DNA of 64,000 nt from Escherichia coli (lineage in GTDB: Bacteria > Pseudomonadota > Gammaproteobacteria > Enterobacterales > Enterobacteriaceae): the NCBI RefSeq assembly GCF_046105845.1, contig NZ_CP151004.1; one strand, given 5' to 3'. A program made the position numbers and the translations under genes. This document shows positions 14,192-15,286 of the stretch, piece by piece (the stretch's first letter is position 1; each line of letters starts with the position of its first letter). Below the pieces are notes generated by a model, which saw only the letters and a program-made list of their open reading frames with translations, was not told the origin of the DNA and did not search any database.

Positions 14192-15286
14192 TTACACAAT
14201 TTCGCGGCAGGCGCGATAGAGATCGTTCCAGTCGCTGCGCTCTTTGACGATGGTTTCCAGATATTCACGCCATACCACGTCGTCCTGCACGGGGTCTTTT
14301 ACCACCGCGCCGACCAGGCTTGCGGCAATATCCCGCGGATGCAGTACGCCGTCGCCAAAATGGCCTGCCAGCGCCATACCGTTGTTGATAACGGAGATCG
14401 CCTCCGCGGTGCTGAGAGTGCTGGTTGGCGACTTAATTTTTGTTTTGCCGTCAACCGTCAGGCCGTTTCGTAGTTCGCGGAATATCTGCACGACTCGCTG
14501 AATCTCCTTTAATGCTGGTGGTTCGGCGGGCAGCGCAAGCGCCTGGCCGAGTTCAGCGACGCGGCGAGTGACAATGTTAATCTCTTCTTCTTCGCTGGCG
14601 GGTACGGGCAAAATAACTGTGTTGAAACGACGTTTAAGCGCGGAAGAAAGTTCGTTAACACCTTTATCCCGGTTGTTGGCGGTGGCGATAACGTTAAAGC
14701 CGCGCGTCGCCTGGACCTCTTCATTCAGTTCGGGGATAGGCAGCGTTTTTTCCGACAGGATCGTGATCAGCGTGTCCTGAACATCAGCAGGAATACGCGT
14801 CAGCTCTTCTACGCGTGCAATCTGCCCGCGCGCCATCGCCCGCATCAACGGACTTTCTACCAGCGCCGAACGTGACGGACCTTTAGAGAGCAACTCCGCG
14901 TAGTTCCAGCCATAACGCATTTGTTCTTCACCGGTGCCTGCGGTGCCCTGAATAATTAACGTTGAGTCGCCGCTGATGGCGGCCGCCAGATGTTCAGAGA
15001 CCCAGGATTTCGCAGTGCCGGGTACGCCATACAACAGCAGTGCGCGATCGGTTGCCAGAGTGGCAACGGCAGTTTCGATAATCCGCCGGTTGCCGATATA
15101 TTTCGGCGTGACCTCAAAGCCATTTTCCAGCTGCCCGCCCAACAGATAGGTGGCGACGGACCATGGAGAAATGGCCCAGTTTTCCGGGCGCGGATGAGTA
15201 TCGTTTTTTTGCAGCTCATCCAGTTCTTCAGCAAATTGTTGTTCGGCATGTCGGCGTAAAACGGCGGCAGTAGCGGTGGAAGTCAT
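14192..15286 (-). CDS. MoxR-like AAA+ ATPase
   Basis: Track ORF extends to 15400, but ATG at 15286 has GGAGA SD and ATGA overlap with upstream stop, giving 364 aa; Walker A GVPGTAKS; Walker B-like ARVEEL; MoxR-like sensor region NVIATANNRD. Confidence 0.82.
   Translation of the reverse strand: MTSTATAAVLRRHAEQQFAEELDELQKNDTHPRPENWAISPWSVATYLLGGQLENGFEVTPKYIGNRRIIETAVATLATDRALLLYGVPGTAKSWVSEHLAAAISGDSTLIIQGTAGTGEEQMRYGWNYAELLSKGPSRSALVESPLMRAMARGQIARVEELTRIPADVQDTLITILSEKTLPIPELNEEVQATRGFNVIATANNRDKGVNELSSALKRRFNTVILPVPASEEEEINIVTRRVAELGQALALPAEPPALKEIQRVVQIFRELRNGLTVDGKTKIKSPTSTLSTAEAISVINNGMALAGHFGDGVLHPRDIAASLVGAVVKDPVQDDVVWREYLETIVKERSDWNDLYRACREIV

Follow-up and report, generated by a model that had tools for sequence, protein, structure and literature searches.

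A conserved R-h-E-E Walker B motif in a YehL-subfamily MoxR ATPase encoded by an accessory Escherichia coli operon

Introduction

Within a 64,000-nucleotide stretch of Escherichia coli DNA (contig NZ_CP151004.1 of RefSeq assembly GCF_046105845.1; the whole stretch is referred to here as the window), positions 14192–15286 of the minus strand encode a putative AAA+ ATPase of the MoxR group whose Walker B motif, expected to read hhhhDE (h, hydrophobic), carries Glu-Glu in place of Asp-Glu. The Walker B Asp binds Mg2+ and the following Glu is catalytic, as described for NorQ (PMC9976466). A preliminary description of the locus, made from the sequence alone, proposed that the replacement could either alter nucleotide hydrolysis or represent a lineage signature. 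The locus raises the question of whether the Glu-Glu pair is a lesion of this copy, a sign of different chemistry, or a trait of the family to which the protein belongs.

In the interpretation that we consider likely, the gene encodes a hydrolysis-competent ATPase of the YehL subfamily, in which R-h-E-E is an ancient and fixed signature (consensus G-x-h-h-R-h-E-E-h-T-R), and which would work as a motor resembling that of NorQD. PMC3893208, citing Snider and Houry (2006), lists YehL among seven MoxR subfamilies. Few AAA+ proteins are as poorly understood as the MoxR ATPases, and no function has been assigned to the YehL subfamily despite its member in E. coli K-12.

The AAA+ core and where its Walker B motif lies

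The coding sequence at 14192–15286 (minus strand, stop codon included) was delimited by the open reading frame, the Pfam AAA_5 match and the RefSeq boundaries in E. coli SMS-3-5, and it specifies 364 amino acids. Pfam AAA_5 (PF07728) is matched end to end (residues 83–221, model positions 2–139 of 139, E-value 1.6e-38); the AAA_3 match is far weaker, and the bpMoxR match is limited to residues 59–107 (E 2.9e-4). Direct reading locates the Walker A motif, or P-loop, G87-V-P-G-T-A-K93-S94 at 15005–15028 (minus strand), where G87, P89, G90 and K93 are invariant in a family alignment of 28 sequences (A1).

An AlphaFold2 model built on this alignment (mean predicted local distance difference test score 92.4, predicted template-modelling score 0.89) contains strands at residues 82–87, before the P-loop, at 156–160, ending at Glu160, and at 198–204, ending at Asn204. 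The last of these is the predicted strand beta4 (14675–14695, minus strand), which terminates in the nearly invariant sensor-1 Asn204 and lies in the NVIATANNRD segment (residues 198–207). The arginine-finger candidates are Arg219 and Arg220 (14627–14632, minus strand) in the segment ALKRRF, which are nearly invariant and align to ALRNRF of Midasin AAA domains, and the conserved R273 is a candidate for sensor 2. Modelled hairpins at 125–127/142–144 and 181–184/189–192 fall at the sites expected for the helix-2 and pre-sensor-1 inserts of clade-7 AAA+ proteins. When the model was compared with the PDB using Foldseek, NorQ (9qh9, 9qh6, 9qh4 and 9qhd; E ~1e-12, template-modelling score ~0.8 relative to NorQ) and CbbQ (6l1q, 5c3c) ranked first, followed by MCM and dynein. 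By these features, the protein belongs to AAA+ clade 7, the MoxR group (Pfam AAA_5), and departs from it in Walker B. The earlier assignment to the MoxR-like ATPases thus stands on the full AAA_5 match, the NorQ/CbbQ fold, the similarity to YehL and the adjacent VWA_CoxE gene, the last two of which are detailed below.

The Walker B strand is placed at I156-A-R158-V-E160-E161-L162 (14801–14821, minus strand) by alignments with Midasin and RavA, by the modelled strand 156–160 and by the R-h-E-E of relatives. Within it, ARVEEL corresponds to residues 157–162, with E160 encoded by GAA (14809–14807) and E161 by GAG (14806–14804). In a phmmer search against PDB chains, the stretch gqiarveeltripadv aligned to four AAA domains of Midasin at their Walker B regions (WLLLDEVNLATAD, WIVLDELNLAPTDV, FFLLDEISLADDSV and WVLLDEMNLASQSV), with arveel opposite LLDEV, VLDEL, LLDEI and LLDEM of the four domains; the same stretch was also aligned to WVLIEDIDKAPTDV (IED) of a further Midasin domain. 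Comparison of the A1 family profile with E. coli RavA by hhalign (probability 78%) set I-V-R-x-E-E-l-T-R opposite I-V-F-L-D-E-I-W-K, so that the RavA Asp faces E160, the catalytic Glu faces E161 and a Phe faces R158. Because the Midasin alignments, the RavA alignment and the modelled strand agree as three independent routes, Glu160 is assigned to the Walker B Asp position and Glu161 to that of the catalytic Glu.

Set against the strict hhhhDE pattern of the MoxR group, the segment reads I-A-R-V-E-E, and Arg158 interrupts the hydrophobic run. A canonical pair elsewhere was also looked for: the AAA core contains no alternative hhhhDE, and a second Walker B was rejected, as the only other Asp-Glu occurs at residues 23–24, in the N-terminal helical region. 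The motif was placed at ARVEEL throughout, and the preliminary reading of Glu-Glu in place of Asp-Glu is borne out by the Midasin and RavA alignments and by the model.

Conservation of the Glu-Glu pair in the YehL subfamily

The query was scored against 1.84 billion cluster representatives, which gave 2443 matches at E<=1e-3. The best 150 of these were used together with the best 120 from a 90%-clustered database, giving 270 proteins in a query-anchored alignment. Among representatives at 50% identity that cover the respective column, R158 is retained in 124/126, E160 in 120/124 and E161 in 120/125; T163 is found in 108 representatives and R164 in 119. In close homologs, each of these five residues is present in 120/120. 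Of 244 sequences of the family, 238 show the pattern R-[VIFLM]-E-E, exactly one (P0189) carries a canonical R-I-D-E, and two look like frameshifted fragments. Further invariant or near-invariant residues are K93, S97, E98, Q113, Y125, W127, N128, Q170, D171, N204, R219, R220 and R273.

The closest characterized name is YehL of E. coli K-12 (b2119), with 41% identity over 350 residues (E 1e-78) and a Walker B of VRFEEI. Other named matches are much weaker, namely MadB at 45 bits and GvpN at 28 bits, both far below the cut-off. Similarity and gene neighbourhood identify the ATPase as a new accessory paralogue within the YehL subfamily of MoxR ATPases. Since 238 of 244 relatives share R-h-E-E and K-12 YehL itself reads RFEE, the Glu-Glu pair is a subfamily signature. 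Together with the preceding Arg it is a fixed trait of the subfamily and no lesion or peculiarity of this strain, and by the same comparison the invariant Arg158, two residues before Glu160, is equally non-canonical. Of the two options raised initially, the lineage signature is therefore the one that the relatives show, and the suggested alignment with RavA and YehL gave a consistent result, the RavA Asp-Glu facing E160-E161 and YehL carrying the same pair as the query.

One family member shows what inactivation looks like. In P0137, the Walker B reads R-F-E-A, sensor 1 is degraded (IATCTT) and the Arg finger is lost (LQGHM), so that this protein is probably an inactivated paralogue. By its sequence, it illustrates real inactivation in the YehL family, the loss of E161 being accompanied in this one relative by loss of sensor 1 and of the Arg finger.

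Some close homologs from Bilophila and relatives (P0033, P0037 and P0121; 83–84% identity) are 488–521 amino acids long, versus ~360 in the other proteins. These long forms may reflect an extension, a fusion or a mis-call.

Start codon and selection on the ATPase gene

The mechanically called open reading frame spans 14192–15400 (minus strand), and the protein has 364 amino acids when read from the ATG at 15286. The intervening 15287–15400, a 38-codon N-terminal extension from GTG 15400, falls within the upstream DUF5691 gene in another frame, and in the SMS-3-5 ortholog it is interrupted at the fourth codon by CGA>TGA, an in-frame stop. At 15286, the ATG shares an ATGA (CTTTATGACT) with the TGA that ends the upstream gene, and GGAG stands 10 nucleotides upstream of it. 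The RefSeq annotation of the SMS-3-5 ortholog uses the identical start, and the homologs (best 120 from the 90%-clustered database) measure 358–369 amino acids with 97–100% coverage. The real start is thus assigned to ATG 15286, not 15400, because of the ATGA overlap, the RefSeq usage and the stop codon inside the ortholog's extension, and the extension is considered spurious. The preliminary description had already preferred this ATG over the longer frame, in agreement with all of these observations.

Relative to SMS-3-5, 50 of 1095 nucleotides differ; of the codons affected, 48 are changed synonymously and 1 non-synonymously (V325I), a pattern that points to strong purifying selection on the gene. 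Identity to the Verrucomicrobium spinosum orthologs reaches 81% for the ATPase, 68% for the VWA protein, 48% for DUF5682, 42% for the SWIM protein and 31% for DUF5691. Because the partner identities show that the divergence is old, the ATPase is exceptionally constrained. Such constraint speaks against a site that is decaying or inert, and does not by itself prove hydrolysis. Across the operon as a whole, conservation follows a steep gradient (window 10766–18206 versus V. spinosum locus 5954–13751), the ATPase evolving several-fold slower than its partners.

Comparison with related systems and proposed mechanism

The ATPase is most likely an active motor rather than a dead one, since its other catalytic residues (K93, Q113, N204, R219/R220 and R273) are retained across the family and purifying selection acts on the gene. 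The system that it resembles most closely in structure is NorQ-NorD, together with CbbQ-CbbO, which likewise combines a single AAA+ module bearing helix-2 and pre-sensor-1 hairpins with a co-encoded von Willebrand factor A (VWA) protein carrying a MIDAS (an adhesion site that depends on a metal ion). In NorQD, the helix-2-insert hairpins hold a finger of the NorD VWA domain inside the pore, and ATP-driven cycling of the subunits rotates the VWA/MIDAS module and opens the client (PMC13036017); the ATPase rate of NorQ is ~13–25 per min per hexamer (PMC13036017, PMC9976466). The differences are considerable. Sequence identity to NorQ and CbbQ is only 17–20%, NorQ has a canonical Asp-Glu (its Walker B mutant being E109Q; PMC9976466), an additional N-terminal region of 65 residues and a longer lid set the YehL type apart, and its partners are DUF5682, DUF5691 and SWIM proteins, not a respiratory enzyme or Rubisco.

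As the same set of modules is present and the helix-2 insert contains an invariant Y-x-W-N, a NorQD-like mechanism is the best inference. By analogy, the ATPase would assemble as a hexameric ring, and its helix-2-insert hairpins, with the invariant Y125, W127 and N128, would grip a finger of the co-encoded VWA_CoxE protein. ATP turnover would then move the VWA/MIDAS module and remodel a client, with the co-operonic DUF5682, DUF5691 and SWIM proteins as probable clients or co-factors. At the active site, Glu160 would still position Mg2+, and Arg158 could pair with the nearly invariant Ser97 or Glu98 on helix 1.

Two further systems place the motif in a wider context. Among solved structures, Midasin/Rea1 is the best match by sequence (summed E 1e-15) and also couples AAA_5 modules to a VWA/MIDAS domain, and the region from Walker B to sensor 1 could be aligned with five of the six AAA domains that it contains. 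It is, however, a single eukaryotic chain of 4900 residues with six fused AAA domains and a C-terminal MIDAS domain, and the aligned domains have Asp-Glu in four cases, Glu-Asp in one and Glu-Glu in none, with a hydrophobic residue at the Arg158 site. RavA-ViaA shares the Walker A motif GxPGxAKS, the motif order and a VWA partner gene, but RavA differs in its FLDE Walker B and C-terminal LARA domain, and the pair has no DUF5682, DUF5691 or SWIM partners.

Several points weigh against a hydrolysing, NorQD-like motor. The support from the AlphaFold2 model lies in the strand boundaries and not in how Glu160 and Arg158 are oriented towards the P-loop. The conserved site would also be compatible with an ATP binder that hydrolyses very slowly or only when gated. 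In addition, literature searches returned no functional study on yehL, yehM, yehP, yehQ, DUF5682 or DUF5691, nor any relevant work on DUF4132 with SWIM and VWA proteins or on RuvB D113E, and the proposed client is a guess.

The alternative that survives best, although we judge it unlikely, is that the Glu-Glu Walker B turns the protein into a nucleotide-binding switch, or a very slow and strictly partner-gated ATPase, in which an internal Arg158-Glu160 lock is released by the VWA protein or other partners. In its favour, virtually all members have lost the Asp that serves as the canonical Mg2+ ligand (PMC9976466), and a charged Arg enters a normally hydrophobic strand, at a position that is hydrophobic in RavA and in four Midasin domains; 81% identity across phyla would also suit a protein with many interaction surfaces. 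However, Glu161, the sensor-1 Asn, the Arg finger and R273 are conserved, residues that are needed for hydrolysis and not for binding alone, and the chemistry of Glu would allow it to hold Mg2+.

A change of cofactor specificity, by which Glu160 would retune the site to another divalent metal (Mn2+ or Ca2+) or to another nucleotide, seems quite improbable. McrB, from the same AAA_5 group, has evolved the use of GTP. The fixed change lies exactly at the metal-ligand position and is surrounded by family-specific conserved residues (S97, E98, Q113, Q170 and D171), but the Walker A is of the ordinary MoxR type, GxPGxAKS, as in RavA. Finally, a mis-assigned Walker B, an error in the local sequence, a mutation specific to the strain, or a decaying copy is hardly credible and was rejected, as it can appeal only to the departure from hhhhDE. 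Against it stand three alignments that agree with one another and with the AlphaFold2 model in placing the motif, Glu-Glu in 120/120 close homologs and in K-12 YehL, and an intact gene with a 48:1 ratio of synonymous to non-synonymous codon changes.

The five-gene operon and its genomic context

The ATPase gene is the third of five genes on the minus strand, which by their spacing form a tightly coupled operon. The first (16884–18206) encodes a SWIM zinc-finger protein of 440 amino acids, identified by a Pfam SWIM match at residues 59–82 (E 1.3e-6) and by its RefSeq name. The second (15283–16887) encodes a DUF5691 protein of 534 amino acids (Pfam DUF5691, E 4.7e-121) with ATGA overlaps at both ends, that is, at the junctions of genes 1–2 and 2–3. 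After the AAA_5 ATPase gene (14192–15286; 364 amino acids) and a gap of 17 nucleotides comes the gene for a YehM-like DUF5682 protein of 749 amino acids (11925–14174; Pfam DUF5682, E 8e-267), which overlaps by 11 nucleotides with the fifth gene, encoding a YehP-like VWA_CoxE protein of 389 amino acids (10766–11935; Pfam VWA_CoxE, E 3.6e-52). The MIDAS motif of the latter, D-Q-S-G-S, is intact (residues 214–218, positions 11282–11296). Right after its stop codon, direct reading revealed a hairpin resembling a terminator, GGCCGGA-(9 nt)-TCCGGCC with T6 behind it (10730–10758, minus strand), which a consensus scan missed owing to its loop limit of 8.

The operon sits between gltD and nanQ (window 9750–18440), an interval that in K-12 contains gltF-yhcA-yhcD-yhcE-yhcF-yhcG (K-12 locus 1617–10015); SMS-3-5 keeps a DUF1016 (yhcG-type) fragment beside the operon. 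Among complete E. coli genomes, only 33 of 5426 carry the ATPase gene, which is chromosomal every time. The related K-12 system is yehLMPQ, in which YehL shares R-h-E-E (RFEEI) and is followed by YehM (27% identity to the DUF5682 protein) and YehP (37% to the VWA protein), and both systems include a protein with an N-terminal SWIM domain. Unlike in K-12, the SWIM gene lies upstream rather than downstream and its product is without BLASTP similarity to YehQ, a DUF5691 gene is added, and no DUF4132/YehI gene is adjacent, the operon described here being an accessory paralogue of its own, located between gltD and the nan genes.

V. spinosum carries all five genes in an identical arrangement, and the triad of AAA, DUF5682 and VWA genes recurs there and in two metagenomic lineages. 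In one of these, the triad is followed by genes of 76 and 451 amino acids. The other contains DUF4132, a 1614-amino-acid gene, the AAA gene, a DUF5682::VWA_CoxE fusion (1037 amino acids) and a 584-amino-acid gene. The fusion in this lineage supports the view that DUF5682 and the VWA protein cooperate physically. In the loci with the fusion (3204–15436 and 395–12627), DUF4132 lies upstream of the YehL-type gene, as yehI lies upstream of yehL in K-12.

Comparison of the four partner proteins with PDB chains by sequence found nothing. By structure, the DUF5682 protein combines an N-terminal TraB/ChaN-like fold with a C-terminal alpha-solenoid. Its structural likenesses include 2rad and 2qgm (‘succinoglycan biosynthesis’ structures) and HopBA1, and the rest of the chain resembles the alpha-solenoids of symplekin, MIF4G and PP2A-A. 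The invariant residues of the N-terminal domain are G-I-R-H13-H14, V-E37-G, E82, D100, E151 and G-A-W-H213. These resemble the GxxH...E...GxxH pattern of the Tiki/TraB/ChaN/erythromycin-esterase superfamily, as a lead and not as a claim of membership.

A role as a known defence system was considered and dropped, as PADLOC-DB 2.0 and NCBIfam gave no meaningful matches for the operon proteins; in PADLOC-DB 2.0, the ATPase had only sub-threshold P-loop matches to IetA (E 1e-3) and the four partners had none. The MoxR-vWA ternary conflict systems, which combine a bpMoxR-type ATPase with a vWA protein, a third component and variable effectors (PMC7159879), were likewise rejected, the bpMoxR match being partial and the neighbours including no beta-propeller, iSTAND, VMAP or FtsH. 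SWIM and YehM are not mentioned in that study (Kaur et al. 2020). PHROGs families match the DUF5682 protein (phrog_30700) and the VWA protein (phrog_31592). A faecal virome record, MT835988.1 (‘UNVERIFIED Bacteriophage sp.’; positions 253–4879), encodes a YehL-like ATPase with 56% identity, followed by open reading frames of 748 and 436 amino acids. A phage origin was rejected, as this unverified and unannotated scaffold, most likely bacterial DNA, is the only ‘phage’ record with the ATPase.

Implications

As a statement about a motif, the finding is sound but modest, and the five-gene machine and the constrained R-x-E-E site are of more interest than the motif itself. For annotation pipelines and motif scanners it carries a warning, in that a Glu-Glu Walker B is no ground for calling YehL-type proteins inactive. 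The whole YehL subfamily has swapped the Mg2+-ligand Asp for Glu and acquired an invariant Walker B Arg, with its other catalytic residues strongly constrained. Through its VWA_CoxE, TraB/ChaN-like DUF5682, DUF5691 and SWIM components, the operon also offers a tractable E. coli system for the role of a YehL-type motor.

A bolder proposal, which we consider rather unlikely, is that R-x-E-E marks a mechanistically distinct MoxR clade, with Glu160 as the metal ligand or with an Arg158-Glu160 lock freed by partners, that drives a widespread five-protein machine whose DUF5682 subunit has a TraB/Tiki/ChaN-like hydrolase domain. If this were true, YehL-type operons would represent a novel type of ATP-gated system, for processing or for stress/conflict, and not another cofactor-insertion chaperone.
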